From: an uncultured virus (IMG/VR IMGVR_UViG_3300037585_005926)
Taxonomy: Duplodnaviria > Heunggongvirae > Uroviricota > Caudoviricetes
Length of the DNA: 64,000 nucleotides
Reading direction: 5' to 3' (one strand)
Virus record (IMG/VR): IMGVR_UViG_3300037585_005926
Span: 1 to 64,000 of that record
Shown here: piece after piece, positions 26,610 to 50,095 of the stretch
How the letters are laid out: each line of letters starts with the position of its first letter
How positions within the stretch are numbered: position 1 is the stretch's first letter
The notes under the pieces: generated by a model
The model's input: the letters and a program-made list of their open reading frames with translations, nothing else
The model's database searches: none
What the model was told of the DNA's origin: nothing
Made by a program: the position numbers and the translations under genes

Positions 26610-26634
26610 CAGCTTGGTCTTGACCGGTTATAAT
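26606..26634 (+). promoter_or_regulatory. consensus sigma70 promoter for uvdE
   Basis: TTGACA-17 bp-TATAAT. Confidence 0.85.
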
Positions 26635-26661
26635 GTATATGTACTTGTAGGAGGGTATAAC

Positions 26662-27594: not shown

Positions 27595-27602
27595 ACGTAT
27601 TG

Positions 27603-27610
27603 ACTATTTA
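27603..27610 (+). promoter_or_regulatory. putative late promoter
   Basis: ACTATTTA upstream of phoH. Confidence 0.5.
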
Positions 27611-27631
27611 CTCTGACACCATAGGGGTAAA

Positions 27632-31701: not shown

Positions 31702-32988
31702 ATGCAAAAGAAAAAGATTTTGGTTATTGCTGACCACCCACTTTCACCTTCTGGTGTTGGTACTCAAACAAAATACATGATTGAGGCCCTCCTCAAGACA
31801 CAAAGATACAAGTTTGTCTGCCTAGGTGGCGCCATGAAGCACGCTGACTACAATGCCGTCAACGTAGAACCATATGGTACAGACTGGACAATCTACCCTG
31901 TCGATGGGTATGGTAATCATGAGATTATTAGATCGGTACTACAAAAAGAAAAGCCAGACTTGCTTTGGTTTATGACCGATCCTCGTTTTTACGAATGGTT
32001 GTGGGAGATTGAAAATGAGGTCCGCGCAAACTTGCCGATGGTATATTACCATGTGTGGGATAACTTTCCCGCGCCACACTTTAATGGAAAATGGTATCGG
32101 TCTAATGACCACGTTGCATGCATTTCAAAAGTAACACATGAGATTGTCAAAGAGGTGGCACCGCAGGTCAAGTCTTCTTATATGCCACACGCCGTTAATC
32201 CAAGTATTTTTAAACCTTCGGTAACTTCTGAAGAAAAGATTGAAGTTACAAAAATAAGAGAAAATATTCTTGCCGCTTCAAAAGAAAAATTTGATAACCC
32301 TAAGAAGAAGATATTCTTTTGGAACAGCCGCAACGCTAGAAGAAAGCAAAGCGGCACACTTATTTGGTGGTTTAAGGAACTCTTAGATGAGGTGGGTCAT
32401 GATAAGGCCGTACTTCTGATGCATACAGACCCTAGAGACCCACACGGTCAGGACTTACCACACATAATTGAGCATCTGGGTGTTGCAGACGGACAAGTTT
32501 TGATTTCTTCTAACAAGGTAGCCCCCGAGGGCTTAGCCGCAATGTATGGCGCATCTGATTTTACTATTGGTATTAGCGATGCAGAGGGCTTTGGCTTGTC
32601 GACTTTGGAATCACTTAGTTGTGGTACTCCAATCATAGTCAATATGACAGGCGGCCTACAGGAGCAGGTAACAGACGGTAAAAATTGGTTTGGCTGGGGG
32701 ATACAGCCGTGCAGCAAGGCAATTATTGGTTCGCTCCAAGTGCCTTACATCTATGAGGATCGTATATCACAAGAAGACTTTAACAAGGTTATGAAAAAGG
32801 CCCTTGCACTATCTGGGCCTAAATACAAAAAAATGGCAGAGATGGGCCTACAACATGTTAAGGACAACTATAACTTTGAGGATTACGAAAAGAACTGGAC
32901 CAGCCTTATTGATGAAGTTATCGAAGAAAATGGCTCCTGGGAAACAAGAAAAAATTATGAACGTTGGAATCTAATGGAGGTTTTATAA
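31702..32988 (+). CDS. GT-B (GT4-like) glycosyltransferase
   Basis: SGVG, RNARRK, AEGFGLSTLESLSCGTP. Confidence 0.9.
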   Translation: MQKKKILVIADHPLSPSGVGTQTKYMIEALLKTQRYKFVCLGGAMKHADYNAVNVEPYGTDWTIYPVDGYGNHEIIRSVLQKEKPDLLWFMTDPRFYEWLWEIENEVRANLPMVYYHVWDNFPAPHFNGKWYRSNDHVACISKVTHEIVKEVAPQVKSSYMPHAVNPSIFKPSVTSEEKIEVTKIRENILAASKEKFDNPKKKIFFWNSRNARRKQSGTLIWWFKELLDEVGHDKAVLLMHTDPRDPHGQDLPHIIEHLGVADGQVLISSNKVAPEGLAAMYGASDFTIGISDAEGFGLSTLESLSCGTPIIVNMTGGLQEQVTDGKNWFGWGIQPCSKAIIGSLQVPYIYEDRISQEDFNKVMKKALALSGPKYKKMAEMGLQHVKDNYNFEDYEKNWTSLIDEVIEENGSWETRKNYERWNLMEVL

Positions 32989-34235
32989 TGAAAAAAGTAT
33001 TATTAAGGGGCCCCGTATTAACGCGCTCCGGCTATGGCGAACAAGCTCGATTTGCACTTAGAGCATTACGCAGCAGGGAAGACGTGTTTGACATCTATAT
33101 CAACCCCATACAATGGGGAGGAACTAGCTGGTTAAGCGACATTACAGAAGAGCGTACATGGATTGATCAAATTATTGAAAAAACCATTCACTATACCCAA
33201 CACAGCGGCAAATTTGATTACTCAGTACAGGTTACAATACCAAACGAGTTTGAAAAGCTCGCTGATGTCAATGTTGGCTATACCGCTGGAATAGAAACAA
33301 CAAGAGTCTCTCATGAATGGATTCATGAAGCAAATCAGATGGATCGAGTAATCGTTGTTTCAACGCACTCTCGCGATGTATTCGAAGATACTACCTACGA
33401 CGCTCATTATGAACAAACCGGTGAACAGTTTACCCTTAGAACAACCTCCCCAATCGCAGCAGTAAATTATCCTGTAAAAGAATATGAGGATATGAAACCA
33501 TTAGCGCTTGATTTGACAACGGAGAAAAACTTTGTATGTGTCGCGCAGATGGGCCCCCGAAAGAACCTTGACAATACAGTGGCCTGGTTCGTGGAAGAGT
33601 TTTTCAATGATGAAGACGTGGGCCTGATAGTCAAAACAAATTATGCTAAAAATAGTTTAGTTGACAAAGAGGTCTGCCATGGCCGTTTGTTGAATATTCT
33701 ATCGACATATCCGGATAGAAAATGCAAGGTGTATCTTTTACACGGCGATATGACGGATAAAGAAATGCATGAGATCTACCTCCATCCTAAGGTGGTAGCT
33801 GCAGTTTCGTTTACTCATGGTGAAGGCTTTGGCCTCCCTCTTTTTGAAGCAGCATATATGGGTATTCCTGTCGTAGCCACCGGTTGGTCCGGCCAGCTAG
33901 ATTTTCTTTGCGATAAATCTAGAAAAGAATATTTTTATAATGTATCTTTTGATATTCAACCCATTCCTGACAATGTAGTGTGGGATGGTGTTTTGATTAA
34001 AGATTCAATGTGGGCATATCCCCGAAAAGAATCAGCGCAAAAGCAGATGCGCGCATGTCTTAACGACATCAAGGACAATCAAGGCATCGATGCTCAAGAA
34101 TATGCCAAACAATTGAGAGAAAGATTTAGTGAAGAAAGTTTGTATAAAGATTTTATAAATGCAATGGGTATAACTGAAGACGATTTTGATGTTGAAAACT
34201 GGCTAGACAATTTAGGACTTGAAGAAATAGAGTAG
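32988..34235 (+). CDS. GT-B (GT4-like) glycosyltransferase
   Basis: SGYG, PRKN, HGEGFGLPLFEAA..GIPVVATGWSG. Confidence 0.9.
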   Translation: MKKVLLRGPVLTRSGYGEQARFALRALRSREDVFDIYINPIQWGGTSWLSDITEERTWIDQIIEKTIHYTQHSGKFDYSVQVTIPNEFEKLADVNVGYTAGIETTRVSHEWIHEANQMDRVIVVSTHSRDVFEDTTYDAHYEQTGEQFTLRTTSPIAAVNYPVKEYEDMKPLALDLTTEKNFVCVAQMGPRKNLDNTVAWFVEEFFNDEDVGLIVKTNYAKNSLVDKEVCHGRLLNILSTYPDRKCKVYLLHGDMTDKEMHEIYLHPKVVAAVSFTHGEGFGLPLFEAAYMGIPVVATGWSGQLDFLCDKSRKEYFYNVSFDIQPIPDNVVWDGVLIKDSMWAYPRKESAQKQMRACLNDIKDNQGIDAQEYAKQLRERFSEESLYKDFINAMGITEDDFDVENWLDNLGLEEIE

Positions 34236-34243
34236 TGAGTTAG

Positions 34244-35080
34244 ATGAAAATAGTATTCATAGCCGACGCTTTTGCGGAACAAGTGCTTGGCGGCGGCGAA
34301 CTAAATAACGAAGAATTACTCAAGATGTTGGCACAAGATGGCCACGACGTATTAAAAATTAATAGTCATAAAGTTACAATAGAGTTTATTGACAGACATA
34401 TAGAATCGAAGTTTATCATTGCAAACTTTGCGAATCTAAAACCTGCCCTCAGGGATAAGATCTGTGACACAGTGTATATTATATACGAACACGATCATAA
34501 ATATTTGAATACAAGAAACCCGGGTGAGTATCCGGGATTTAAAGCACCGAAAGAAGAAATAGTCAATATAGAACTGTATAAAAATGCCCGAGCAGTTCTG
34601 TGTCAATCACAGTTTCATTTGGAAATAATAAAAATGAACACTGAGCTTGATAATCTGGTTAATTTAAGCGGTAATCTTTGGTCACTGCGCTCACTTGACT
34701 TAATGAAAGCAATGGCTGAAAAGCCGAAGTCTGAGTGTTGCTCAATTATGCAATCAAACATTATACATAAAAACACCCGTGAGGCTATTATGTATTGTAA
34801 ACATAAAAAAATGCCGTATAAATTGGTTTCTAGTAAAAATTATGAGTCTTTTTTGGATCAGTTGAGTGAAAACAAAACTTTATTATTCTTACCAAAAACC
34901 CCGGAAACACTCTCACGAGTTGTAGTTGAAGCAAGAATGATGGGAATGAGCGTCATCGTTAATAAAATGATTGGAGCGACTCGGGAGCCTTGGTATGAAC
35001 TAAAAGGCAAAGATCTGATTGAATATATGCGCGTAAAAAGAAAAATGATAAAAGACGTAGTTTTGGAGGAGTTATCATGA
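34244..35080 (+). CDS. glycosyltransferase-like protein
   Basis: GGGEL N-terminus; PETLSRVVVEARMMG. Confidence 0.75.
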   Translation: MKIVFIADAFAEQVLGGGELNNEELLKMLAQDGHDVLKINSHKVTIEFIDRHIESKFIIANFANLKPALRDKICDTVYIIYEHDHKYLNTRNPGEYPGFKAPKEEIVNIELYKNARAVLCQSQFHLEIIKMNTELDNLVNLSGNLWSLRSLDLMKAMAEKPKSECCSIMQSNIIHKNTREAIMYCKHKKMPYKLVSSKNYESFLDQLSENKTLLFLPKTPETLSRVVVEARMMGMSVIVNKMIGATREPWYELKGKDLIEYMRVKRKMIKDVVLEELS

Positions 35081-35994
35081 AAATTTATATATGTGATTAT
35101 GAAACACACGCCGGCAAATGGATCTATCAAGGATATCAAAAGGCCTGGAGTTCTCTTGGTTATAAGGTAGTTAAGTGCGGTCCGGGAACAGGGGCGCCGA
35201 ACCCAGAACCCAATGAAAAGTATATGGTGATGGTGACAGATTATGATATATCAGATAGAAATATTAATATTTTAGAAAATAGCCACAAGTCATTCTTATT
35301 TGTACAACCAAGCAGGTTCCCTGAGCCTTGGGCCGGCCACCCAAACTTTACGTCGCAACAAGCCCCACAAACAAGTAAAAAAATAAATCAAATGGATAAT
35401 GTATATCCTTGGACGTTCGCCAATACTTCCGGGAGCGATTTTTATCCTCTATGGGATGGGAAAATAAACACGATACCATTGGCCTTTGATTCAATAAGTT
35501 ACAATCCCACTGAAGTGGATAAGTATAAACAGTTTGACATTAGTTTTGTGGGAGGTTGGGCTGACAACGGGTTTAATGAAAAAAGAAAGATAATGATGAA
35601 AACCTTTGCTGCGTTTAAGGACTCTGGCTTGAAGTGCGGGTTCTTCATAAATAAAAACCTTTCTCACCAGCAGGAATGTGATCTGTTAGCGAACAGTAAA
35701 ATGACGATTAATGTACACGACGCATATCAAAGAACACTCGGTACCGATACCAACGAAAGAACTTTTAAGTCGCTTGGCCTTAACGGCCTAATGATTTCAG
35801 ATACAATTAAACAGCTAAACGATATGTTCCCTAGTGTCCGGACAACCCTTGAGCCTTCTGAAATGGTCACTATTGCTAAAGAAGTTCTTTCACTTTCAGA
35901 AAGCGAAATTGGCAATATAAAAGAAGTTAATCGAGAAAACATTTTGAAAAATCATTGCTATGTTAACCGGGTTCGGACATTTCTAGACCTATGA
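35077..35994 (+). CDS. glycosyltransferase (CgeB/YkvP-like)
   Basis: DISFVGG, SKMTINVH, NERTF, HCYVNRV. Confidence 0.8.
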   Translation: MKIYICDYETHAGKWIYQGYQKAWSSLGYKVVKCGPGTGAPNPEPNEKYMVMVTDYDISDRNINILENSHKSFLFVQPSRFPEPWAGHPNFTSQQAPQTSKKINQMDNVYPWTFANTSGSDFYPLWDGKINTIPLAFDSISYNPTEVDKYKQFDISFVGGWADNGFNEKRKIMMKTFAAFKDSGLKCGFFINKNLSHQQECDLLANSKMTINVHDAYQRTLGTDTNERTFKSLGLNGLMISDTIKQLNDMFPSVRTTLEPSEMVTIAKEVLSLSESEIGNIKEVNRENILKNHCYVNRVRTFLDL

Positions 35995-36896
35995 AGATAG
36001 TCCTTGTAACTAACAAGACATACAGAGGCCACCTCGACGGCGGCTGGTGGTATTTTTATTTGCCATTGCTTGAAATGGGTCATGAAGTCTATTTTTTTGA
36101 CACAGTAGATCCGGTTGAAAAAGATTTTAAGAAGGTAGTGGAAACGCTGAAGCCAGATTTAATATTTTGTATGTTAACCGGCGATTTTAATATTGCCCCT
36201 AGGGAGCCATGGTCCCAAATAAAACAAGAGACGGACAGCGGCCGCACAAGAACATTCAATTGGTTTTGTGATGATACTTGGAGATACTACGACTTCTCTA
36301 AAAAAGTATGCCAGTATTTCAATATATGTTCAACACCTGAGCCGGATTATATAAAGAAATATGAAAGAGCCGGCTATAGCAATATTGTTTTGGGTACCTG
36401 GCATTCCAACATAAGTTTGTACCCAAAGTTAAGCTACCAAGATAAAGACATAGAAGTATCTTTTATTGGCGCCTTGAATGGCCTGCGGAAGAATTTCTTT
36501 GAACAGCACAAAGATCTACCAATTGACATTTTTTCTAATATTTCGCAAGAAGAGATGTATTTAACACACGCAAGAAGCAAAATAGCAATTAACTTAAGCA
36601 TTAATGAAAATGATCCGCAAAAGAAGACACAAATGAAACAAAGGATGTTTGAGATCCCCGCGGCCAAGACACTCCTGCTGACTGAACACCACCCAGGGAT
36701 AGAGCATTTTTTTGAGATTGACAAAGAAATAATAACATTTAAGAGCAATAGGGAGTTTGAAGATAAGATTAAGTTTTTGAATTCTAAGCCTAAGATAGCA
36801 GAAGCAATCGCCCTCTCCGGCTTTAAAAGATATATCACAGAACATGAATCAAAGATCAGGCTCACCAAAGTGTTACAGCAGGTTATGGCCCTATAA
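35991..36896 (+). CDS. glycosyltransferase (CgeB/YkvP-like)
   Basis: WFCDD, VSFIG, SKIAINLS, KQRMFEIPA. Confidence 0.82.
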   Translation: MKIVLVTNKTYRGHLDGGWWYFYLPLLEMGHEVYFFDTVDPVEKDFKKVVETLKPDLIFCMLTGDFNIAPREPWSQIKQETDSGRTRTFNWFCDDTWRYYDFSKKVCQYFNICSTPEPDYIKKYERAGYSNIVLGTWHSNISLYPKLSYQDKDIEVSFIGALNGLRKNFFEQHKDLPIDIFSNISQEEMYLTHARSKIAINLSINENDPQKKTQMKQRMFEIPAAKTLLLTEHHPGIEHFFEIDKEIITFKSNREFEDKIKFLNSKPKIAEAIALSGFKRYITEHESKIRLTKVLQQVMAL

Positions 36897-36958: not shown

Positions 36959-37690
36959 ATGAAAATAGATATAATAATTCCGTGCTACAATGCAGAAAAG
37001 TGGATAGAGAAAAGCATTAAGAGTGCCTTATCACAAACATATAAGAACATTCAAGTCATTGTAATTGATAATGAAAGCAGCGACAACAGTTACAAAGTAA
37101 TCCAAGAAGTCCATGGCCACCATCCGGAAATAATCATAGGGACTGTACCCAATATTTATCCTTACGGCTGGACTGAGCCGGTGGAAAAAGCTCTAAGTCT
37201 TTGTAATGGTGATTATTTCACCATCTTGGGCGCGGATGATTACATCGATCCCGAATACATTGAGAAAATTGTCAAGATAATATCGAAAGCCCCAGACAAA
37301 ATAAAGATTTTACAAAGCCCCCTCATAGGAATCGATTCTGACAAAGGCATAACTTTAGAGGAAATAAAACACTCATATAACAGCTTGGGCCAATTTAAAC
37401 AAATGTTGTTTGAAAAGTGCCCAGTGACGACGCCCACAGTTGTATACAAGAGAGAACTTCATGATAGTGGTATATTACGATGGGACTCAGAAACTTGCTC
37501 TGGCGCAGCAGATTATGATTTATATTTCAATATAGCAGACAACGGCATTTTCATATATCCTTATCCCAAGTGGATCGGATATTATTACCGATGGCACTCA
37601 GATCAGGCAACTTGGGGCATGCATAAACAAACAACAAAATATGATTTGCTAATAAAACAAAAATGGATGGAAAAGTGGAAGAATGGATAA
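36959..37690 (+). CDS. GT2 glycosyltransferase
   Basis: IIIPCYNAE, SALSQTY, VIDNESSD, ILGADD, ADYDL. Confidence 0.92.
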   Translation: MKIDIIIPCYNAEKWIEKSIKSALSQTYKNIQVIVIDNESSDNSYKVIQEVHGHHPEIIIGTVPNIYPYGWTEPVEKALSLCNGDYFTILGADDYIDPEYIEKIVKIISKAPDKIKILQSPLIGIDSDKGITLEEIKHSYNSLGQFKQMLFEKCPVTTPTVVYKRELHDSGILRWDSETCSGAADYDLYFNIADNGIFIYPYPKWIGYYYRWHSDQATWGMHKQTTKYDLLIKQKWMEKWKNG

Positions 37691-39467
37691 CAAAATAAGA
37701 TTGGTCGACTATATCGCAGACAGAGTACACCAATTGGGAGTAAAACACGTTTACACTCTTACCGGTGGCGGCGCAATGTTCCTTAACGACTCTGTAAAGA
37801 AGCATGAAAAACTGCTCTCTGTTTGCAATCACCACGAACAAGCGAGCGCCATGGCTGCTGTAGCACATGCTAAATATACTAATGGGTTTTCGGTGGTGAT
37901 ACCAACCACAGGTTGTGGCAGTACAAACTGTATTACCGGTCTATTAGATGCATGGCAGGATAACTTGCCCTGTATATTTATTTCAGGTCAGGTCAACAAA
38001 GACCAAACTTGCTTTAGTTCAACTGCGAATATTCGTCAGTTCGGAGTTCAAGAGGCAAACATTGTAGAAATAGTTAAATCAATCACAAAGTATGCAGTTA
38101 TGGTTGAGGCTCCGGAGGACATCGCATATCACCTCGACAAGGCCTTTCACCTGGCTTCTACGGGACGCCGCGGCCCTGTCTGGATAGATGTCCCGCTGGA
38201 CGTTCAAGGGGCCTTTATAAACCCCTCTGAGCTTAAAAGGTATATTCCCGACGACAAGACGCTTTCTCCCGATTTAAACAATCTTAGGGAAATGCTAGAA
38301 AAAGCCACTCGGCCCGTAATATTAGCAGGAAATGGCGTGAGGTTAGCCGGCGCCTCAAAAGAAATAAAAACGTTCGCTGAAAAGCACAACATCCCAGTAG
38401 TCACTACCTTTCTGTCAGCCGATTTGTTGCCATCGGAACATGAATTGAACATAGGCAGAGTTGGCATTAAGGGCAATCGAGCAGCAAACTTTGTAGTGCA
38501 AAATTCTGATTTCTTATTGTCGATTGGTTGTAGACTAAGCGTGCCCTCTACCGGCTACAAATATGAATACTTTGCGAGAGAGGCCAATATCGCAGTTGTG
38601 GATATAGATCCGGAAGAGCACAAAAAAGACACTATTAAAATTGACTTGTTTGTGGAAATGGATGCCAAAGACTTTATGCTGAAGTTTGAAACAGAATATC
38701 GCTCAACTCAAGCATGGATAGATACATGTTCGAAATGGAAATCTACATGGCCTGTCTTTTTGCCGGAACACGAAGACGATGAGGATGGTATTAGTATGTA
38801 CCGATTCATGAAAACACTGTCTATAACACTTCCTGCAAATTCTAGCGTAGTCGGAGATGCTGGCTCTGCATATTATGTGCCGTGCCAGGCGCTTCAAATC
38901 AAAGACGGTCAACGCCTGATTACACCTGGAGCCCAAGCAGAAATGGGCTTTACATTGCCGGCCTGTATTGGGCTGTCTTTTGCTATGGAGAATCCTTGCA
39001 TAGCGGGGATTACTGGCGACGGCTCTTTTCAGACAAACATACAGGAATTGCAAACTATTGTACAATATAATCTTCCGGTTAAGATATTTGTGTGGAACAA
39101 TGATGGCTACCTTTCAATCAGAACCACACAGAGAAAGTATTTTGAAGATCGATTCGTGGGTACTGACAAAGATAGCGGGGTCTCATTTCCCGATACTCAA
39201 AAAATTGCGGCCGCATATGGGATAAAATACTTTTCTATGTCAAACAATATGGAGCTTGATGCCCAAATGCAGGAGATAATAGATTTTGATGGTCCCGTTA
39301 TTTGTGAAGTGATGTGTAAAAAGTGGGACAAAGTACTGCCCACAATCGGTGCAAAAAAATTAGATAGCGGACAATTAGTATCCCAACCACTAGAAAACAT
39401 GTTTCCTTTCTTGACAGAAGAGGAATTACGTGTTAATATGTTAGTACATTCAATAGAGGAGAAATAA
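37683..39467 (+). CDS. thiamine-diphosphate-dependent enzyme (acetolactate synthase-like, YerE-type)
   Basis: HHEQAS, FISGQV, GPVWIDVPLD, TPP motif GDGSFQTNIQEL...WNN. Confidence 0.88.
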   Translation: MDNKIRLVDYIADRVHQLGVKHVYTLTGGGAMFLNDSVKKHEKLLSVCNHHEQASAMAAVAHAKYTNGFSVVIPTTGCGSTNCITGLLDAWQDNLPCIFISGQVNKDQTCFSSTANIRQFGVQEANIVEIVKSITKYAVMVEAPEDIAYHLDKAFHLASTGRRGPVWIDVPLDVQGAFINPSELKRYIPDDKTLSPDLNNLREMLEKATRPVILAGNGVRLAGASKEIKTFAEKHNIPVVTTFLSADLLPSEHELNIGRVGIKGNRAANFVVQNSDFLLSIGCRLSVPSTGYKYEYFAREANIAVVDIDPEEHKKDTIKIDLFVEMDAKDFMLKFETEYRSTQAWIDTCSKWKSTWPVFLPEHEDDEDGISMYRFMKTLSITLPANSSVVGDAGSAYYVPCQALQIKDGQRLITPGAQAEMGFTLPACIGLSFAMENPCIAGITGDGSFQTNIQELQTIVQYNLPVKIFVWNNDGYLSIRTTQRKYFEDRFVGTDKDSGVSFPDTQKIAAAYGIKYFSMSNNMELDAQMQEIIDFDGPVICEVMCKKWDKVLPTIGAKKLDSGQLVSQPLENMFPFLTEEELRVNMLVHSIEEK

Positions 39468-39468
39468 C

Positions 39469-40401
39469 ATGAGTGCAAATGATAAAAACAAAGTTACAAT
39501 TTTAAGATTACGTCGACAAAAGAGAGAAAAAACACCAACAGTGATAACCACTGCTTATGACTACCCACAAGCAAGAATCGCTGATGGTGCGGGTGTAGAC
39601 TGCATTTTGGTGGGTGATTCATTAGGGATGACCACTCTAGGATACAAGACTACAATCCCCGTAACAATGGATGATATGATTAGACACTCTGAGGCAGTTT
39701 CCAAAGGCGCCAAGAATGCGTTCTTGATCGGAGATATGCCTTATATGTCTTACCAAGTATCCAACGAAGAAGCGGTGCGAAATGCAGGCCGCTTTGTTAT
39801 TGCCGGCATGGATTGTGTAAAGGTTGAGGGCGCTATGATTGAGCGCATTAAGGCCATCGCGGATTCCGGCATCATGGTGATGAGCCACCTGGGCCTCACT
39901 CCTCACACTAGAGCGAAGCTCGGGGGTTATCGAGTTCAAGGTAAAACAGCCAAACAAACGGAGATTATCCTACAACAGGCCCTTGATTTGCAAGAGGCTG
40001 GTTGCTCTTTTCTACTGCTAGAGGGCATGCCACGCGAGTCTGCTGAAATTATTGCCAAAGAACTTAAGATCCCTGTTTATGGGATTGGCGCTGGTGATAA
40101 GGTAGATGGTCAATTGGTAATCTTTCATGACTTGATGGGCCTCTTTTGGGAGTTCAAATCTAAGTTTGTTAAGAGGTATTGTGAAGCTGGCCAAATTATG
40201 CAGAATGCCCTGAAGGAATATGCAGCCGAAGTTCGGTCTGGGAACTTCCCGGCAGAAGAAAACTTTTACGCCATCAAAGAAGAAGAGCTAGAGAGACTTC
40301 TCGGCGGAGGCAACTGGAAGCACGATCAAGTATTGTATGAGACAGACCAAGGGTTTCCCACTAACCATAGTGCAACACCAAACACGGTAACTAAGAAGTA
40401 A
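39469..40401 (+). CDS. panB: ketopantoate hydroxymethyltransferase-family protein
   Basis: TAYDY, ILVGDSLG, IGDMPYMSY, VKVEG, HLGLTP, GGYRVQGK, GIGAG..VDGQ. Confidence 0.92.
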   Translation: MSANDKNKVTILRLRRQKREKTPTVITTAYDYPQARIADGAGVDCILVGDSLGMTTLGYKTTIPVTMDDMIRHSEAVSKGAKNAFLIGDMPYMSYQVSNEEAVRNAGRFVIAGMDCVKVEGAMIERIKAIADSGIMVMSHLGLTPHTRAKLGGYRVQGKTAKQTEIILQQALDLQEAGCSFLLLEGMPRESAEIIAKELKIPVYGIGAGDKVDGQLVIFHDLMGLFWEFKSKFVKRYCEAGQIMQNALKEYAAEVRSGNFPAEENFYAIKEEELERLLGGGNWKHDQVLYETDQGFPTNHSATPNTVTKK

Positions 40402-40421
40402 TAGCCCGGAGCACCATCTAG

Positions 40422-41273
40422 ATGAATATCTTATTAACAGGTGGTAATGGGTTTCTTGCGAAAGAGCTAAAGCACTATTTTCTAAATAACACAGCCTTGG
40501 ATTGCAAACTCCTTGTAACCGACAGAACTACCCTTAACGTCACCGATTACGAGAGCGTTAGGGGTTTTTTTGAGAACAATGTAGTAGACGTTGTCATACA
40601 TACCGCGGTAAAAGGTGGCAAACGATTAGATACGCAGACGGTTGATGACATTATCGATAATATCTTGATGTTCAAAAACTTGAGTTATTTTTCTGATCAG
40701 TTTAAAATAATGTTCAATTTTGGATCCGGCGCAGAGTTTAATCGCATGAACTCTATTGATTGTGCGACTGAAGAATCGGTGAGTGCATCATTACCTACCG
40801 ATTATTATGGATTATCTAAGAATATTATCGCCCGAAAAATAGCAAAAATGAATAGTAATATTTATAACTTACGCTTATTTGGGTGTTTTGGGCAACACGA
40901 AGAACCGCAAAGATTGTTTCGCTCTTGTTATAACAATTTCAAACTAAATCAAAGCGCGCTAATAACATGTGACAGGTACATGGACTATTTTTACGCTCAA
41001 GACGTAGGCCGAGTAATCGAGCATATTATCGAAAAACATGATATGAGTCTGCCAAGAGACATAAATCTATGTTACTCAGAGAAACACACCTTGAGCGAAC
41101 ACGCACAGGTGATTAAAGATTTGACAAACGCAAAGTCGCAGGTTATAATAGAACAGAAAGAATTGGGCAAATCCTATACGGGTAAGGCACACGTGCTCGA
41201 TTCGCTAAACATTGACCTGATGGGTCTGAATAAAGGAGTAAAAGAATGTCTGAAAAGTTGGAACAAATTATAG
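40422..41273 (+). CDS. NAD-dependent epimerase/reductase (extended SDR)
   Basis: LLTGGNGFLA, FGSGAEF, YGLSK, LRLFGCFG. Confidence 0.88.
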   Translation: MNILLTGGNGFLAKELKHYFLNNTALDCKLLVTDRTTLNVTDYESVRGFFENNVVDVVIHTAVKGGKRLDTQTVDDIIDNILMFKNLSYFSDQFKIMFNFGSGAEFNRMNSIDCATEESVSASLPTDYYGLSKNIIARKIAKMNSNIYNLRLFGCFGQHEEPQRLFRSCYNNFKLNQSALITCDRYMDYFYAQDVGRVIEHIIEKHDMSLPRDINLCYSEKHTLSEHAQVIKDLTNAKSQVIIEQKELGKSYTGKAHVLDSLNIDLMGLNKGVKECLKSWNKL

Positions 41274-42583
41274 AGTTGGTGTCTGATTACATTTCTGAGA
41301 AGCACGAAAATGAAACGTGGACCCCTGGCGAAGACTGGGTAGCATACTCGGGCCCGGTTTTTGATGAAAAAGAATACATCGCCGCTGTACGCCAAATACT
41401 AGATGGTTGGATGATTTTTGGCAAGAACGCAAGAGAGTTTGAGTTAAAGTTTCCGTCTAAGCTTGGAAAACTCTACGGATCCTTAACTAACTCAGGTTCA
41501 TCGGCAAACTTGCTGATGGTAGCCGCTACTAAATCGCGACGATTCCCAAAACAATTAAAGGACGGAGACAAGATTATTACCCCAGTTGTTTGTTTTCCGA
41601 CAACCATTAATCCTATTATACAAAACAACCTTGTACCAGTGTTTGTAGACGTTGAGCTTCCAAGTGTAAACTTGGACCTGGATAGAGTAGAAGAAGTCCT
41701 TGAGAGCGACCCTGACATTAAGGGGATAATGTTTGCACACGTGTTGGGTAACCCGCCTGACATGGACAGATTGATGGCTCTCGTAGAAAAATACGATTTG
41801 GTATTTCTAGAAGATGCATGCGATGCTTTGGGATCTTACTACGACGGTAAGAAGTTGGGCTCCTATGGAGACATGTCAACATGCTCTTTCTTCCCAGCCC
41901 ACCATATGACGATGGGAGAGGGAGGTTTCATTGCAACTAACAGTCAGAAGACACGTACGGCATTGGCTAGTATCCGAGACTGGGGGCGCGCTTGTTACTG
42001 CAACTCAATGAAACCAGGCAACGTCACAAGCGAAACAGCGTGTGGTAACAGATTTAAAAACTGGTTGCCCGGCCTCAAAGATGCTGTGTACGATCACCGC
42101 TATGTTTTCGATGAAATAGGTTACAACCTTAAACCACTAGATTTGCAGGCTGCAATGGGCCTACAGCAGCTTGAAAAACTTCCAATGTTAGATGCTGCTC
42201 GGAGAGAAAACTGGGCCAAGCTACGGGCCATATTTGAGCCTTATGCACAATACTTTCATATGCCGGAGGCTACCGAAAAGTCAGACCCGTGTTGGTTTGC
42301 CTTTCTGTTGACAATCAAGGAAGGTGCCCCTTTCTCTCGTTCGGATATAGTAAACCATCTTGAGGGTCTTAAAATTCAAACACGTTCTTACTTCTCAGGC
42401 AACATCTTGGCTCACCCGGGCTACGTTCACCTTGCTGAAGAATATGGTGATATGTATGAAACCTTCCCTAACGCCCAATTGATTACGACAAACTCGTTCT
42501 TTTTAGGAACCTATGTAGGCCTCACCGGCGAGAAACTTGAATATATTAAGGAAGCAGTTGATGGCTTCTTTGAGAATTTGTAA
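41246..42583 (+). CDS. rfbH: CDP-4-keto-6-deoxy-D-glucose 3-dehydrase (RfbH/DdhC-like)
   Basis: NSGSSANL, FPTTINP, AHVLGNP, EDACDALG, SFFPAHHMTMGEGG (His in place of Lys), RDWGRACYC...C. Confidence 0.88.
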   Translation: MSEKLEQIIELVSDYISEKHENETWTPGEDWVAYSGPVFDEKEYIAAVRQILDGWMIFGKNAREFELKFPSKLGKLYGSLTNSGSSANLLMVAATKSRRFPKQLKDGDKIITPVVCFPTTINPIIQNNLVPVFVDVELPSVNLDLDRVEEVLESDPDIKGIMFAHVLGNPPDMDRLMALVEKYDLVFLEDACDALGSYYDGKKLGSYGDMSTCSFFPAHHMTMGEGGFIATNSQKTRTALASIRDWGRACYCNSMKPGNVTSETACGNRFKNWLPGLKDAVYDHRYVFDEIGYNLKPLDLQAAMGLQQLEKLPMLDAARRENWAKLRAIFEPYAQYFHMPEATEKSDPCWFAFLLTIKEGAPFSRSDIVNHLEGLKIQTRSYFSGNILAHPGYVHLAEEYGDMYETFPNAQLITTNSFFLGTYVGLTGEKLEYIKEAVDGFFENL

Positions 42584-43533
42584 TGAAACTCGTTTATGTC
42601 ACCGGCTGCCTGGGGTTTATTGGCTCGTATGTAACACGTAAATGCCTTGACAGGGGCTGGAAAGTGTATGGAGTAGACAAGTGCACGTATGTAGCCAACA
42701 CTTCACTGCTAAAAAGCTTCGAAGCTAACCCCAACTTTACTTTCATCAAAGAGGATATAAAAGATCTTCAGCATCTGTATGACTGTGATTACGTTATTAA
42801 TACGGCCGCAGAATCTCATGTAGGAAATAGCATCATTGATTCGCAAGAGTTTATTGATAGTAACATTGTGGGTGTTCGCAACTTGTTGGACTTGATTCGC
42901 AACAAGCCCGTCAATTGCAATAGACGGCCGGTATTTTTTCACTTCAGCACTGACGAAGTATATGGGGATATTGAAAGCGGTGAACATACAGAACAAGATA
43001 TTTTACACCCAAGCAATCCATATTCAGCGGCAAAAGCTTGTTCTGATATGCTTATCTTAGCGTGGGCCCGAACATATGGCGTCGAGTACATTCTGCTACG
43101 TCCAACCAATAACTATGGAATAGGGCAGTACCCAGAGAAACTGATACCACTTTCTGTAAAGAATCTAATGCGAAATAGAAAGATTAGACTTCATAACGCC
43201 GGAACGCCAGTGAGAAACTGGTTGCATGCTGATGATACAGCAGAAGCTGTTATGACCATCATAGACTCAGGTAACACGAACGAAATCTATAATGTTGCCG
43301 GCGGCTTTGAGCAAAAGAACATAGATACAATATTAAAAGTTATTGACAACTTCTTTGAAGAAGATTATAATTGGGAAGAACATGTTGATTTTTCTTATTC
43401 TCGCGAAGGTCAAGATGTACGATATGCCTTGAACGATGACAAACTACGGGCCCTAGGTTGGACCGCCAAAAGAGACTTTAACAAAGAAATTTACGATATT
43501 GTTCAATATTATAAAAAGAATTTCATATGGTAG
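42583..43533 (+). CDS. NDP-glucose 4,6-dehydratase (RmlB-like)
   Basis: TGCLGFIG, AAESHV, STDEVYG, PYSAAK, NNYG..QYPEKLIP. Confidence 0.9.
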   Translation: MKLVYVTGCLGFIGSYVTRKCLDRGWKVYGVDKCTYVANTSLLKSFEANPNFTFIKEDIKDLQHLYDCDYVINTAAESHVGNSIIDSQEFIDSNIVGVRNLLDLIRNKPVNCNRRPVFFHFSTDEVYGDIESGEHTEQDILHPSNPYSAAKACSDMLILAWARTYGVEYILLRPTNNYGIGQYPEKLIPLSVKNLMRNRKIRLHNAGTPVRNWLHADDTAEAVMTIIDSGNTNEIYNVAGGFEQKNIDTILKVIDNFFEEDYNWEEHVDFSYSREGQDVRYALNDDKLRALGWTAKRDFNKEIYDIVQYYKKNFIW

Positions 43534-43536
43534 AAT

Positions 43537-44532
43537 ATGATACACACAGGAGTAGAAAGAATGCCCAAATGGTATGAACCCACTAGCGATAATATTATTG
43601 GTATTCCCCTCGCCGAAAACGCTCCGGAATGGCAATGCTCATCTGGGACCCCCGAATTGCAACTAGCTGATCTTGGCCGACGAGCGGATTACCTTGTAAG
43701 CGAGTTTAAGGATTACGTGAAAGACCCAGAGTTGGAAAAATTGATTTCAGGAAAGCGCTTGGCATTCATTGGGCCCGCTCCAAGTTTAGATGGCCTGGGT
43801 CTTGGTGAATTGTTCGACTCATATGATTTGGTAGTTCGCATCAATACTGCCTATCACATGCCAGAGCAGCTTTGGGAAGACTACGGGAAGAGGACAGATA
43901 TACTAGTAAACTGCTTAAACTTTAACAAAATCAGAGCTTTGCAAGAAAACATGGACTTCACAAAATCTGTGAAGTATCTTATACAGCCACAGCTTTCAAT
44001 GTGGGACATCAAAAAAGCCGAAAAGATTATCCACGAATGGGGCGCCCCATTTCATAACGTGTGTGATGGTTATTTGTTTAAGGTTAACAAGGAAATAGGC
44101 ACAACCACTAACACTGGTTTGCTGGGGGTGATAACTCTCTTGAACTATAATATAAAAGAGTTGTATATTGGAGGATTCACCTTTTTTGATATGGGTTCAA
44201 AGAGTGGAGAATACTACAACAAAGCACACCTCTCTCAAACAATCAAATATGACCCAGTTCAAGTAGTTGATAATAAACTCACCAGCGCCTCGTTAAGGTT
44301 AGATGACCTGCACTTGCAGGAGCCTCAAATATTGTATTTTGGTAAAATATTGCGAAAATATTATGGAACCAAGATCCAGGTGGATGAGTATCTAAGACAA
44401 AATTTCAATTTATGGATAGACGGCGCCGTCGACGGCATCTCTGATAAAGGCGTTAAAAAACTTTTTCAACTTGATAGACAATTAAAACTAAACAACAATT
44501 TAACCATTTGTAAATGGGAAGGAAAAATATAA
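43537..44532 (+). CDS. GT29/sialyltransferase-like glycosyltransferase
   Basis: IGPAPSL...DSYDLVVRIN...YGKRTD resembles sialyl L-motif; TTNTGL; LYIGGFTFF. Confidence 0.6.
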   Translation: MIHTGVERMPKWYEPTSDNIIGIPLAENAPEWQCSSGTPELQLADLGRRADYLVSEFKDYVKDPELEKLISGKRLAFIGPAPSLDGLGLGELFDSYDLVVRINTAYHMPEQLWEDYGKRTDILVNCLNFNKIRALQENMDFTKSVKYLIQPQLSMWDIKKAEKIIHEWGAPFHNVCDGYLFKVNKEIGTTTNTGLLGVITLLNYNIKELYIGGFTFFDMGSKSGEYYNKAHLSQTIKYDPVQVVDNKLTSASLRLDDLHLQEPQILYFGKILRKYYGTKIQVDEYLRQNFNLWIDGAVDGISDKGVKKLFQLDRQLKLNNNLTICKWEGKI

Positions 44533-45668
44533 TGAAAGTAGTAGCAATGATACCTGCCCGTTTTGGCAGCAAAAGAATCCCAAAAAAGAATATACGCTTG
44601 TTAAATGGAATCCCATTGATAAGTTATATTATTAGAGCCGCCAAAGAGGCAAAATGCTTCGATGAAATATACGTTAACTCAGAGTCAGATATTTTGGGAG
44701 AGATTGCAGAAAAAGAAGGCGTAAGTTTTTATAAACGCCCCGCGGAACTTTCAACCGACAGCGCAACAAACGATGAGTTCACACAAGACTTTATGAACAA
44801 TGTAGAGTGTGATGTATTGGTACAACTTTTACCTACATCACCGTTCATAAAAGCACGCGACATACTAAAATTTACCGCCACTATGCTCGGCACGGAGGCC
44901 GACACACTTGTATCAGTTACCGATCAACAGATAGAGTGCATATATAATCGACAGCCAGTCAACTTTGACCAAAAGAAGATCTCCCCACCGTCGCAGGATG
45001 TGACGCCGGTACAACCTTATGCATGCGGCATGATGGGTTGGAAAACCTCCAACTATCTTGCGAATATGGATAAGTACAATTGTGGTTATCACGGTGGTGA
45101 CGGCGATATACACTTCTATACTGTTTCGGGCTTTGCGACAGTTGACGTTGACAACGAAGAAGATTTTCAATTAGCGGAAGTAATTGCCCGAGCAATATCA
45201 AAAGAAGCATATGCACCTCAATTTTATGGCGAAACGCATTCGGAAGTTGATGTTCCTTCAATCTTGCTTAAGGACGGAGTTAAAAATAATAATTTACATG
45301 ACACCAACAAAGAAATAGTCAATATCAACGAGATACGTTCTTCGTTCAAGTCAACAAAGTCGTGGAGTCACCGAGTTGTAAATACGGAAAACAACAGCGC
45401 GACCTTGATCCACCAACAGCCGGGCCAAGGAAATCGAAGGCACTATCACCCAGATTGGAACGAGTGGTGGTATATCGTCGATGGAGAGTGGGAGTGGGAA
45501 ATCGACGGAGTTAAGAAAATTGTCAAAAAAGATGATATTGTTTTTATACCCAAGGGTATAATACACAGAATAGAGGCCACCGGTGACAAGCCTGCAATTC
45601 GCCTAGCTATCAGCCGGGAAGATGTGGCACATGTATATCCAGATGGAGAGCATACAAATGAAAGATAA
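44532..45668 (+). CDS. acylneuraminate-type cytidylyltransferase fused to a cupin domain
   Basis: IPARFGSKRIPKKN, LLPTSPF, VDVDNEEDF; C-terminal HYHP..EWWYIVDG...IPKGIIH. Confidence 0.85.
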   Translation: MKVVAMIPARFGSKRIPKKNIRLLNGIPLISYIIRAAKEAKCFDEIYVNSESDILGEIAEKEGVSFYKRPAELSTDSATNDEFTQDFMNNVECDVLVQLLPTSPFIKARDILKFTATMLGTEADTLVSVTDQQIECIYNRQPVNFDQKKISPPSQDVTPVQPYACGMMGWKTSNYLANMDKYNCGYHGGDGDIHFYTVSGFATVDVDNEEDFQLAEVIARAISKEAYAPQFYGETHSEVDVPSILLKDGVKNNNLHDTNKEIVNINEIRSSFKSTKSWSHRVVNTENNSATLIHQQPGQGNRRHYHPDWNEWWYIVDGEWEWEIDGVKKIVKKDDIVFIPKGIIHRIEATGDKPAIRLAISREDVAHVYPDGEHTNER

Positions 45669-46557
45669 TGTACTTTTGAATGAAACAATGTTTGTCATAG
45701 GTTCGGGCCCGAGCTTGAACGCTATCGATATCAAAAAATTAGAGGGTCTTCATACTATTTCCTTGAATCGGCAGTATATTGCCTATGAAGACTGGGGCTT
45801 TTGGCCAAAATACCACGCTTGTATCGATATACGATTGATAAATACTATTTACGAATCAGATCTTCTTCCAATGATGTTAAGCCCGGAATGCGAAATTGAG
45901 AGATTTTTCATCTATGGCTGCAGCAATCTTGAAGTCCCGGAGGACGTCGCTGCACACTATAACATTCAAGCAGGGGCGCTTCCGGAAAAGCTCATATGGA
46001 TACCGGCGGTTGGTAGTACATTCCGGACCCCCGCTCAGCGCACCAAGACTATTCCGAAGCTAGAAACATGCTATGTAGACCCAGAGCTAGCGCGGGAAAG
46101 ACTGAGCACACATCTTCGGGATCCAAATGATCCGTATTCATGCTTAGAGCACTTTGGTATCTCCGGAGCCTGGTCAGTAACATTAGCTCGCAGCTTGGGG
46201 TATAAAAGAGTTGTCGTCTTGGGCATCGATGCCAACTACGTTCCCCGTGTCGAATCAATTAGTGCTGGAAGAGACCTCAACCACTTTCACAAAAATTATT
46301 TTGATGTAGATACTTTTGTATATCAAGTTAACTTCGGGCCGGCCACCGGCTACTTAGAACCATGGAAAATAATGGCCACCGGCACTGGCCTCAATGACCA
46401 GCCCGTTTCTTGCGGATCGCCAGATGCGGCCCATGTTTGCGCCGATGAGACCATTGAGGTAATTTCATCTTCGCCAGGCTCACCTATTAATGAGTGGTTT
46501 GAATATATTGATTTTAATAAATTGTTGGAAAGCTATGAGGCAGAAGATGAATATTGA
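45658..46557 (+). CDS. Maf/DUF115-like or GT-A-like transferase
   Basis: IGSGPSL, SLNR, YHACID, VVVLGIDANY, NHFHKNYF. Confidence 0.55.
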   Translation: MKDNVLLNETMFVIGSGPSLNAIDIKKLEGLHTISLNRQYIAYEDWGFWPKYHACIDIRLINTIYESDLLPMMLSPECEIERFFIYGCSNLEVPEDVAAHYNIQAGALPEKLIWIPAVGSTFRTPAQRTKTIPKLETCYVDPELARERLSTHLRDPNDPYSCLEHFGISGAWSVTLARSLGYKRVVVLGIDANYVPRVESISAGRDLNHFHKNYFDVDTFVYQVNFGPATGYLEPWKIMATGTGLNDQPVSCGSPDAAHVCADETIEVISSSPGSPINEWFEYIDFNKLLESYEAEDEY

Positions 46558-47269
46558 TTTTGCAAACCAAAATGTGCTGGTAACTGGTGGTACCCGCGGA
46601 ATAGGTAATCAAATTGCAAACGATTTCGCCAATTTAGGTGCACACGTTTTGATTACTGGCACGAAAAAACCAAAACAAAAGATACACCAAAACATACAAT
46701 TTGTTTCTGCGAATTTTCTGGATAACACTTCAACCGAAAACTTTATTAAAGAGATCTCTGAACAAACATTTGATGTCTGCGTTAACAATGCTGGCATTAA
46801 CAAGATTGATCCACTCTGCGAGGTCAAAGAGCAAGACTGGAATGACGTAATGAAAGTCAACCTCACAGCACCATTTTTGATACAGCAGGCTGTATGCAAG
46901 AACATGCTCAACCAGAGCTACGGAAAGATAGTCAATATCTCCTCTATATGGGGCACAGTCAGCATTCCGCACCGCGCCAGTTACTCTGCCAGCAAGTTCG
47001 GTCTACGAGGCCTCACGGCAGCCTCAGCGGCCGAACTGGCTCAACATAACATTTTGATCAACACTGTCTCGCCGGGGTTCACATTAACTGACCTGACCAA
47101 ACAAATCTTGGGTGAACAGGGTATTGAAGACTTGACAAAACAGATTCCAATGCGACGAATGGCTGAGGTGGATGAAATATCGAGAGTTGTACTGTTCATG
47201 TGCAGCAAACTCAATACATATATTTCTGGCCAGAATATCATTGTAGACGGCGGATTTGTAAATGTGTGA
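46547..47269 (+). CDS. short-chain dehydrogenase/reductase
   Basis: TGGTRGIG, VNNAG, NISS, YSASK, VSPG. Confidence 0.92.
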   Translation: MNIDFANQNVLVTGGTRGIGNQIANDFANLGAHVLITGTKKPKQKIHQNIQFVSANFLDNTSTENFIKEISEQTFDVCVNNAGINKIDPLCEVKEQDWNDVMKVNLTAPFLIQQAVCKNMLNQSYGKIVNISSIWGTVSIPHRASYSASKFGLRGLTAASAAELAQHNILINTVSPGFTLTDLTKQILGEQGIEDLTKQIPMRRMAEVDEISRVVLFMCSKLNTYISGQNIIVDGGFVNV

Positions 47270-49486: not shown

Positions 49487-50095
49487 ATGTTAATTAATTT
49501 TGAGAATATTGAAGAAAAATGCCACACGGCAGCCTCATCGGCTGAGTATGCGATACTCGCCGAGAAAGTGAGCAAAGTAAAAAAGATCTTTTTGATTGGA
49601 AATGGTGGCTTGCACTACGTAGCGAGCCATATGGCGACCGATTTATCGCGACTGATACCGGATAAGGCTGTATATTCATTTGATAGTGTCGGGTTTATCA
49701 CATCCAACGCCAACGATCATGGGTATGACAAGATCTTTATTAGATGGCTAGAAACTATTGCCAATGGTGTTGAAAGACCGGAGGAGTGCTTAATTATAGG
49801 ACTCTCTTGTTCGGGCAATTCGGGCAATGTTATCGATGCCCTACATTGGGCTGACGATACTGGCTATGAGACATTTATGGTTAGCGGTCAAACGTCTGAT
49901 GTTTTGCGCAAAGGCGTGGATGAATTATCCCTTGATTGTGAATTTTTCCACACTGTCGAAGTAATGTGTCTAATGATATTCTATGATCTTATTCACCGTA
50001 CAGGCAATCACTGTCCGTCTATTCGACAAGAAAAAGACAGACTGACAGACTCCCCTCTTCGCAAATCGAAGGAGGAAAATTGGGAACCCCTATAG
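49487..50095 (+). CDS. SIS-domain sugar isomerase (GmhA-like)
   Basis: IGNGG...ASHMATD, ANDHGY, GLSCSGNS. Confidence 0.8.
   Translation: MLINFENIEEKCHTAASSAEYAILAEKVSKVKKIFLIGNGGLHYVASHMATDLSRLIPDKAVYSFDSVGFITSNANDHGYDKIFIRWLETIANGVERPEECLIIGLSCSGNSGNVIDALHWADDTGYETFMVSGQTSDVLRKGVDELSLDCEFFHTVEVMCLMIFYDLIHRTGNHCPSIRQEKDRLTDSPLRKSKEENWEPL

Follow-up and report, generated by a model that had tools for sequence, protein, structure and literature searches.

Why a marine virus should carry panB, the gene for ketopantoate hydroxymethyltransferase (KPHMT), in the middle of a run of deoxysugar genes is the question raised by the DNA described here. The window, i.e., the whole stretch of 64,000 nucleotides (nt) that was analysed, belongs to an uncultured member of the Caudoviricetes (IMG/VR record IMGVR_UViG_3300037585_005926) and represents the first 64 kb of a 77.7-kb marine virus record with an estimated completeness of 42%, in which panB is present once. 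The initial annotation of the locus, made from its sequence, had recognized a yersiniose-type branched-sugar pathway with an inserted PanB that would hydroxymethylate the acetyl branch or the keto-sugar. The computational analysis presented here indicates that PanB most likely helps to build the side chain of a branched sugar rather than serving the synthesis of vitamin B5. More precisely, we estimate a probability of roughly 60% that the virus encodes a route to an acyl-branched 3,6-dideoxyhexose in which PanB takes the part of a pyruvate aldolase and makes the 2-oxoacid donor before the branching step. The product of this route is probably an undescribed branched sugar.

The cassette comprises five genes on the + strand that encode, in order, a thiamine diphosphate (ThDP)-dependent enzyme of 594 amino acids (aa) with three TPP domains (37683-39467), PanB (310 aa, PF02548; 39469-40401), an extended short-chain dehydrogenase/reductase (SDR) matching Epimerase (PF01370)/RmlD_sub_bind (283 aa; 40422-41273), a 3-dehydrase of the E1/RfbH/DdhC type (445 aa, NF011936; 41246-42583), and a nucleoside diphosphate (NDP)-hexose 4,6-dehydratase matching GDP_Man_Dehyd (PF16363)/Epimerase (316 aa; 42583-43533). 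A gene for a family-2 glycosyltransferase (GT2) on the same strand (36959..37690; PF00535, 91.9 bits) shares 8 nt with the start of the ThDP gene, which it directly precedes in syntenic loci as well. Overlaps also join the SDR and dehydrase genes (28 nt) and the dehydrase and 4,6-dehydratase genes (1 nt), while gaps of 1 nt and 20 nt separate panB from the ThDP gene and the SDR gene, respectively. Both the positions of the open reading frames (ORFs) and their profile matches agree with the tightly packed, five-gene arrangement that had been read from the sequence before.

The ThDP enzyme contains the TPP_enzyme_N, M and C domains, and the catalytic Glu in an HEQ motif as well as a GDG(x)26NN motif were recognized by eye in its translation. 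Comparison with solved structures gave 432.6 bits for JanthE (8rph), 235.9 bits for PpYerE (5ahk), and 215-224 bits for plant and Escherichia coli acetolactate synthases (ALS), and the score of 363.7 with the ALS equivalog profile TIGR00118 lies under its cut-off of 538.35. JanthE is a YerE-like enzyme that joins 2-oxoacid donors to ketones, according to the available portions of the two reports on it (PMC12188165, PMC12247030). Judged by sequence, the enzyme in the window is a YerE/JanthE-like carboligase, probably FAD-dependent too, and not an acetolactate synthase. The 3-dehydrase scored 473.6 with NF011936 (cut-off 423) and carries the motif FFPAHHMT, in which His replaces the aminotransferase Lys; it matched the Yersinia E1 structures 3bcx/3bb8 at 347 bits with its AHH aligned to the E1 His, and by eye it keeps the CxC and a further Cys of the E1 cluster region. 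The RfbH-like 3-dehydrase with an AHH motif named in the initial annotation is thereby borne out. The 4,6-dehydratase (PF16363, 191.7 bits) scored 295.5 with TIGR01181, under the cut-off of 365.1, versus 73.6 with TIGR02622, the profile of the cytidine diphosphate (CDP)-glucose type, and by these scores it is nearer the deoxythymidine diphosphate (dTDP)-glucose than the CDP-glucose type. The SDR shows a Rossmann GGNGF motif and a YxxxK motif (YYGLSK) by eye and matches PF01370 and the N-terminal part of RmlD_sub_bind, its best solved relative reaching only 23.5 bits. Most loci have the layout ThDP-PanB-SDR, with the SDR after PanB, and the enzyme is proposed as a putative reductase of the branch carbonyl in the role of YerF/ErwF. 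Pfam and NCBIfam profiles detected no aldolase family in the cassette, where PanB holds the place of the aldolase.

PanB itself scored above cut-off with PF02548 (332.1 bits, cut-off 28.7), TIGR00222 (288.7, cut-off 207.55) and NF001452 (320.6, cut-off 272). The alignment with E. coli KPHMT (1m3u) spans residues 9-266 and scores 198 bits, and the viral protein is extended at its C terminus by approximately 40 aa. The accessible part of a study of KPHMT lists as strictly conserved the Asp of LVGDS, D84, K112, E114, H136 and E181 (E. coli numbering), and four motifs, LVGDS, HLGLTPQS, IPVIGIGAG and DGQILVMHD (PMC13488298). In our alignments D50, D89, K118, E120, H140 and E185 were invariant in all PanBs compared, comprising 71/71 of the main viral clade, 12/12 of a viral sister clade, and 76/76 cellular proteins. 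Moreover, the pocket positions equivalent to E. coli I202, I212 and V214, mutation of which has widened the 2-oxoacid scope of KPHMT as far as the available text of that work goes (PMC7610986), are I, L and I in all viral and most cellular PanBs. Of the four motifs, LVGDS is unchanged in the window PanB, and the others read HLGLTPHT, IPVYGIGAG and DGQLVIFHD, the last two being variants that are common in cellular PanBs. The Q-to-H change in HLGLTPHT separates the groups completely (H in 71/71 of the main viral clade versus Q in 76/76 cellular PanBs), and this H146 is one of several signatures fixed in the main viral clade near the catalytic His, together with S139, T147, R148 and K150. Further signatures of that clade are W227, S231 (P in 74/76 cellular PanBs), and a conserved Trp-Lys in the C-terminal extension.

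The pairing of PanB with a ThDP enzyme was found to be widely conserved. A scan of viral contigs with the window PanB yielded 89 relatives, of which 80 loci were kept (53-97% identity; main clade 72-97%), and as a cellular control the 80 nearest loci by peptide patterns were taken from a collection with one genome per prokaryotic species. In 77/80 viral loci panB and a ThDP gene are immediate neighbours, in the order ThDP-PanB in 46 and PanB-ThDP in 31; one of the remaining three has a ThDP gene nearby, and the other two (L071, L073) are at or near contig ends. Collapsing the viral set at 90% PanB identity left 35 clusters, 34 with adjacent genes and 1 with the ThDP gene near. In the cellular collection the pairing occurs in 3/80 loci: two of these (L082, L084) have PanBs that are 74-80% identical to that of the window and fall inside the viral clade, and the third (L085) is a contig of a Chloroflexi metagenome-assembled genome (MAG), with a 59% identical PanB and the order ThDP-PanB-dehydrase-SDR. 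The other 77 cellular loci have no ThDP neighbour within 8 kb; they include L083, which encodes, about 0.9 kb from the end of the locus, a PanB identical to the one of viral locus L020. The pairing of PanB and ThDP enzyme is beyond chance, and the conserved gene adjacency, which the initial annotation had named as a check on its reading, is present. A reverse search from the ThDP enzyme returned 33 loci, of which 21 have PanB, 4 end at the ThDP gene and 8 lack PanB; since several of them are contigs of the first scan, the two counts are not independent. The ThDP enzymes of the 8 PanB-less loci are 36-43% identical to that of the window, and 7/8 form one separate clade.

The sugar genes around the pair are conserved in kind and vary in type. 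A DegT-family ORF was found in 68/80 viral loci, and all 68 have at least one such ORF with His at the position of the Lys that binds pyridoxal phosphate; of 71 DegT-family ORFs in total, 70 have His and 1 has Lys. These dehydrases fall into three types, E1-like (PAHH, as in the window), ColD-like, and a third type (ASHV). Window-type ThDP enzymes (type I, at least 48% identical) occur with an E1-like dehydrase in 28/28 loci, and the enzymes of the PanB-ThDP type occur with a ColD-like dehydrase in 15/15, a third ThDP type being mixed. In this alternative layout, in which PanB comes first, the ThDP enzyme scored 303.7 bits with JanthE, 272.4 with PpYerE and 240 with ALS, and the dehydrase, which has an HH motif, scored 179 bits with the ColD/WbdK structure 2gms. 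The presence of His-type dehydrases throughout, together with the co-varying YerE-like enzymes, suggests that all versions of the cassette make a 3-deoxygenated 4-keto-6-deoxy sugar. As a separate observation, cassettes of the alternative layout (L007, 8446-9999 and 13794-14990; L085, 6014-7528) carry genes for B12-binding radical-SAM, methyltransferase and dTDP-sugar 3,5-epimerase-like proteins, pointing to additional C-methylation or to epimerisation of the branched sugar.

PanB does not follow the changes in ThDP enzyme and dehydrase type. L003 and L004 have PanBs 91% identical to the window PanB, yet their dehydrases are ColD-like and their ThDP enzymes share only 32% identity with that of the window. 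As the recognition of an NDP-sugar should diverge with the sugar, a constant PanB fits a common small-metabolite substrate, and the substrate of PanB appears, from these comparisons, to be independent of the sugar scaffold. The reverse situation is encountered in L165, L167 and L168, which are syntenic with the window (ThDP enzymes 61-68% and dehydrases 68-70% identical) and encode PanBs that are only 46-48% identical (approximately L165:7388-8323, L167:7779-8714 and L168:7779-8714). These proteins have cellular residues at the viral signature positions, GDMPQG for GDMPYM and GDSGGM for GDSLGM, and an insertion of 27 residues. In a quick IQ-TREE phylogeny with a midpoint root only, all viral PanBs linked to a ThDP enzyme fall into a single clade of 84 rows with intermixed gene layouts (support of 97 in the SH-like approximate likelihood ratio test, SH-aLRT), apart from 70 cellular PanBs. 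The second lineage groups with 70 cellular PanBs (branch support 96). In the comparison with housekeeping PanBs proposed in the initial annotation, the main viral PanBs thus cluster apart from the cellular enzymes, and the second lineage groups with them. Because a cellular-like PanB can occupy the same slot, the cassette seems to need "a PanB" and not the features of the viral clade.

A proposal for the function of PanB follows from its chemistry and from a described precedent. The mechanism of PanB is a metal-dependent enolisation of a 2-oxoacid. In the erwiniose system, the aldolase ErwI is encoded beside the YerE homologue ErwE and makes 4-hydroxy-2-oxopentanoate for it, and ErwE rejects pyruvate; 4-hydroxy-2-oxobutanoate is accepted by ErwE, MMAR_2332 and MyGE (PMC9306805). 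E. coli KPHMT can add formaldehyde to pyruvate and other 2-oxoacids, as stated in the accessible part of the report (PMC10127515). This combination of precedent and enolising chemistry leads us to propose PanB as the donor maker. The pathway would start from a host NDP-hexose, which the 4,6-dehydratase and the E1-type, pyridoxamine phosphate (PMP)-dependent dehydrase would convert to an NDP-3,6-dideoxy-4-hexulose. PanB would move the one-carbon unit of methylene-tetrahydrofolate (methylene-THF) onto C3 of a free 2-oxoacid, the candidate products being 4-hydroxy-2-oxobutanoate from pyruvate, 4-hydroxy-3-methyl-2-oxobutanoate from 2-oxobutanoate, and ketopantoate from 2-oxoisovalerate. The ThDP enzyme would then decarboxylate this acid and join the hydroxyacyl anion to the C4 ketone, giving a tertiary alcohol with a 3-hydroxyacyl branch, the carbonyl of which the SDR would reduce to a carbinol. 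Finally, a glycan of the virus or of its host would receive the sugar from the neighbouring glycosyltransferases. The route is predicted to yield an NDP-3,6-dideoxy-4-C-(1,3-dihydroxypropyl)-hexose, or else the corresponding 2-methyl or 2,2-dimethyl homologue; to our knowledge, no such sugar has been described.

Several points weigh against this proposal. All chemistry beyond the assignment of enzyme classes is inferred, and the same applies to the nucleotide carrier, the final acceptor glycan and the choice of acid among pyruvate, 2-oxobutanoate and 2-oxoisovalerate. An E3-type reductase partner was found neither in four viral records, i.e., the 77.7-kb record of the window and three relatives of which two are at least 90% complete (Fer2, 0/4), nor in the Pfam scans of the window ORFs, and the NTP_transferase family is likewise missing from the four records (0/4). 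With both a nucleotidyltransferase of this family and an E3-type ferredoxin domain missing, the first steps must depend on host functions; some E1-like enzymes use general cellular reductases. The unchanged pocket would favour 2-oxoisovalerate, yet as a donor for the ThDP enzyme ketopantoate would be highly hindered. Pyruvate as the acid would fit the precedent of the ThDP enzymes; E. coli PanB uses pyruvate poorly with methylene-THF. In addition, the cellular figure of 3/80 stems from the 80 nearest loci only and not from a balanced sample of PanB diversity. The signatures of the main viral clade, which is not a plain housekeeping copy, could reflect a new and even a sugar-bound substrate, and a sugar-bound 4-C-acetyl group, being an alpha-hydroxyketone, could in principle chelate the metal like a 2-oxoacid. 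The gene order ThDP-PanB-SDR, moreover, is collinear with the reactions of the initial annotation, in which the ThDP enzyme adds acetyl from pyruvate, PanB then hydroxymethylates the acetyl methyl or C3/C5 of the keto-sugar, and the SDR reduces the product. Two added basic residues of the viral clade by the catalytic His (R148, K150) and the C-terminal extension could suit a larger, phosphate-bearing substrate, and PanB-less cassettes share the ThDP-SDR-dehydrase core; since such cassettes exist, the PanB step is an addition to that core, and genomics does not fix where in the pathway it occurs. We nevertheless consider action of PanB on the sugar unlikely, because its 2-oxoacid ligands, metal ligands and small side-chain pocket are all unchanged, and because the occurrence of 91%-identical PanBs with different dehydrase types and with 32%-identical ThDP enzymes is hard to square with the recognition of a specific NDP-sugar. 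A cellular-like PanB that lacks the clade signatures also fills the same slot, and the tested precedent builds the side chain before ligation, with ErwE rejecting pyruvate (PMC9306805). The intact pocket, the independence of the PanB clade from the scaffold, its replacement in situ and the ErwI/ErwE pair together argue for action of PanB before branching. The hydroxymethylation predicted in the initial annotation is thus retained as a side-chain role, and its placement on a sugar-bound acetyl group or keto-sugar has become the less likely part. That PanB has become a nucleotide-sugar enzyme outright, using methylene-THF to hydroxymethylate the acetyl branch or a carbon beside the 4-keto group, with the basic residues and the extension as adaptations, is decidedly unlikely; we know of no folate-dependent C-hydroxymethylation of an NDP-sugar.

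Two further explanations remove PanB from sugar branching altogether. Read as ordinary auxiliary metabolic genes (AMGs), an acetolactate synthase and a normal PanB would push carbon to 2-oxoisovalerate, pantoate and coenzyme A (CoA), and their position among glycan genes would be incidental. PanB does score above its equivalog cut-offs, and on the way from pyruvate to ketopantoate ALS catalyses the first step and PanB the last. Moreover, viral "pantoate transferase" and "acetolactate synthase" genes have been counted as vitamin B5 and amino-acid AMGs, respectively, and the former, read as a vitamin B5/CoA gene, is the most abundant vitamin AMG in a survey of oxygen-minimum zones, according to the part of that work available (PMC8940887). 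This is highly improbable here, as the ThDP enzyme is far nearer JanthE than ALS (432.6 versus approximately 223 bits) and falls under the ALS equivalog cut-off, and profile matches to panC, ApbA_C (panE), KARI_C (ilvC) and ILVD_EDD_N (ilvD) number 0/4 in the four viral records (panD was not part of that search). The absence of panC, panE, ilvC and ilvD reported earlier for the window accordingly extends to its own 77.7-kb record and to three relatives, two of which are at least 90% complete. In addition, the pair is packed between GT2 and the set of SDR, 3-dehydrase and 4,6-dehydratase, a His-type 3-dehydrase is present in 68/68 loci with a DegT gene, the ThDP lineage co-varies with the dehydrase type, and only 3/80 loci of the cellular collection have a ThDP neighbour, two of them with a PanB of the viral clade. 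Alternatively, PanB and the ThDP enzyme might build a non-sugar moiety, e.g., a hydroxylated acyl or acyloin group that is O- or N-linked to the glycan, or might use an acceptor other than a 4-keto sugar. A second unexplained pathway in the same island of the window (44514-50095), and AroB-like and FabG-like genes near the ThDP genes of two PanB-less loci, speak for such a role, which is very unlikely all the same, as a 3-dehydrase, and usually a 4,6-dehydratase too, accompanies the PanB-ThDP pair and the co-variation of ThDP and dehydrase lineages points to a 3,6-dideoxy-4-keto sugar acceptor, as in YerE. The frame of a yersiniose-type C4-branching pathway, with 4,6-dehydratase, PMP-dependent 3-dehydrase, YerE-like carboligase and reductase, stands as the initial annotation drew it, with PanB as a part of it and not of pantothenate synthesis, and within this frame the synthesis of the 2-oxoacid donor by PanB is the reading that we prefer.

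The carriers of the module belong to more than one group of viruses. The T4 capsid protein gp23 was found in 3/4 records tested, namely in the three relatives, which measure 148-186 kb and include two that are at least 90% complete; a cyanophage origin was considered and rejected, as psbA was found in 0/4 records. With gp23, no psbA and sizes of 148-186 kb, the relatives of the window are large T4-like phages of marine hosts. The sister clade of PanBs (L069-L081, not L076) is 53-56% identical to the window PanB, with proteins of 282 aa and the layout PanB-ThDP-SDR(-)-dehydrase-4,6-dehydratase. In all five records of this clade that were tested (G004-G008), 2-8 capsid matches of the type of nucleocytoplasmic large DNA viruses (NCLDV) were found in each, and one contig name has a giant-virus MAG label; these capsid genes suggest that the module is also present in giant viruses of eukaryotes. 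Among cultured phages, a tblastn search with PanB against 50,697 phage records gave 13 matches, all under 60% identity and none of the clade, the best one being a Microcystis phage (46.8%). Viral-clade PanBs also occur on a contig from a Prochlorococcus single-cell genome (L082) and on one from a MAG labelled Pelagibacter (L083), which are probably viral DNA in cellular bins and may be taken as possible host hints; as both are short and may be of that nature, no conclusion on the host is drawn from them.

Near-identical cassette DNA was detected in marine and viral metagenomes. Among the 21 runs listed, which represent 12 studies, 13 held at least half of the sampled words, and 4 of the 21 may be the source sample. 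Two metatranscriptome runs of one study contained short contigs matching the cassette (X18, 9; X20, 5) of 150-240 nt with 0-9 differences, which fall on GT2, the ThDP gene, the PanB/SDR junction, the dehydrase and the 4,6-dehydratase. Because DNA carry-over is possible and contigs cannot show transcription, these matches provide only a weak hint of expression. Very deep contigs in the RNA libraries (depths 131 and 202) were observed at 40371-40403, a segment of 33 nt at the 3' end of panB; on both sides of this segment the contigs run on into unlike sequence, and these pieces probably stem from other DNA and not from panB.

Between approximately 30 and 53 kb of the window all ORFs are on the + strand, and most of them encode sugar-nucleotide enzymes or glycosyltransferases. 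Upstream of the cassette lies a block of five ORFs (31702..36896, +; Pfam), consisting of two GT4-like genes (31702-32988 and 32964-34235), a 278-aa ORF with no function assigned (34244-35080), and two Glyco_trans_1_2-like genes (35077-35994 and 35991-36896). This block is syntenic with the cassette in many viral loci (e.g., L002, L005, L008, L012, L014, L015, L021-L026), and its glycosyltransferases are likely users of the cassette sugar. Directly downstream, a 331-aa ORF (43537..44532, +) may encode a GT29-like glycosyltransferase, judging from a weak match to PF00777 (E 2.9e-4, 20.7 bits, under the cut-off of 23); it has no NCBIfam or PHROG match. The flanks agree with the earlier description, with GT2 and four more GT-like genes before it upstream and only this match under the cut-off downstream. 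A PHROG comparison of 24 window ORFs was little informative overall.

The second unexplained sugar pathway directly downstream (44514-50095) starts with a fusion of a cytidylyltransferase (CTP_transf_3) and a cupin (44514-45668, +) and further includes an AroB-related sugar-phosphate cyclase (TIGR04425, 423.1 versus a cut-off of 400), a 311-aa ORF, a FabG-like SDR, a class-III aminotransferase and a GmhA-like SIS protein. It could represent a cyclitol or heptose-derived route. AroB-like and FabG-like genes also adjoin PanB-less YerE-like ThDP genes in L186 (from 5140) and L187 (8846-10500), where they may supply a different donor. Genes for a guanosine diphosphate (GDP)-mannose 4,6-dehydratase (442 bits), a GDP-fucose-synthase-like SDR and a eukaryotic-type phosphomannomutase, at 51155-53081 and 23293-24084, look like a separate GDP-6-deoxyhexose route. 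A 2,214-aa ORF at 57245-63889 without Pfam or PHROG match, which follows a weak baseplate-hub/peptidase PHROG match at 55048-56190, may be a structural fibre and a possible target of glycosylation. Besides these genes, the window contains a gene for the ultraviolet-damage endonuclease UvdE (194 bits) beside one for a 444-aa PIN-PhoH fusion (26614-28966), and an HNH endonuclease gene at 24634-25170.

If the proposed route is correct, it would define an undescribed family of C-branched deoxysugars with a branch of the 1,3-dihydroxypropyl type, and a new donor chemistry in which folate-dependent C1 transfer replaces an aldol reaction, thereby extending the published scheme of acyl-branched sugars. 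Viral genes of the kind that have been counted as AMGs would be re-read as a glycan-building pair, as in 77/80 loci here, and the presence of the module in two unrelated groups of viruses would point to strong selection to display or alter an unusual sugar. Our literature search, with most subscription journals outside its reach, returned no report that connects PanB to enzymes of the YerE type or to sugar pathways of viruses.

Comparison with known systems places the cassette between several of them. With housekeeping PanB/KPHMT, the window PanB shares 46-59% identity with the cellular proteins as well as the catalytic residues and the I/L/I pocket, and it differs by a clade of its own, by changes around the loop of the catalytic His (Q146H and others) and by the C-terminal extension. 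JanthE and PpYerE are the nearest solved relatives of both types of ThDP enzyme that occur beside viral PanB; JanthE has a CDG motif, according to the available portion of its description (PMC12247030), versus the canonical GDG in the window enzyme, and unlike these two enzymes the latter lies in a defined deoxysugar cassette. ColD of colitose synthesis has its counterpart in the ColD-like HH dehydrase of the PanB-ThDP-dehydrase layout, the window itself being of the E1 type, and this suggests that the PanB-ThDP module has been grafted onto a ColD-type route. The CDP-yersiniose A pathway of Yersinia pseudotuberculosis, with its 4,6-dehydratase, E1/DdhC with E3/DdhD, YerE and YerF, has the same core. 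The viral cassette deviates from it by the inserted PanB, by the absence of an E3 reductase and a nucleotidyltransferase from the four records, by a 4,6-dehydratase nearer the dTDP-glucose type, and by a ThDP enzyme nearer JanthE than PpYerE among the solved structures compared. The closest parallel is found in the erwiniose, caryophyllose and gastriose clusters (ErwI/ErwJ-ErwE-ErwF; MMAR_2331/2332; MygI-MyGE-MygF; PMC9306805), in which a YerE-like gene adjoins a 2-oxoacid-extending gene, together with genes for a reductase and a 3,6-dideoxy-4-keto sugar, as here. Those clusters employ a pyruvate aldolase, whereas the viral system encodes a folate-dependent hydroxymethyltransferase (PF02548) that would extend the acid by one carbon (CH2OH), and the predicted branch of C3 (or C4/C5 with methyls) lies outside the described sugars. 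The product expected of PanB from pyruvate, 4-hydroxy-2-oxobutanoate, is one that the ThDP enzymes of these clusters accept.

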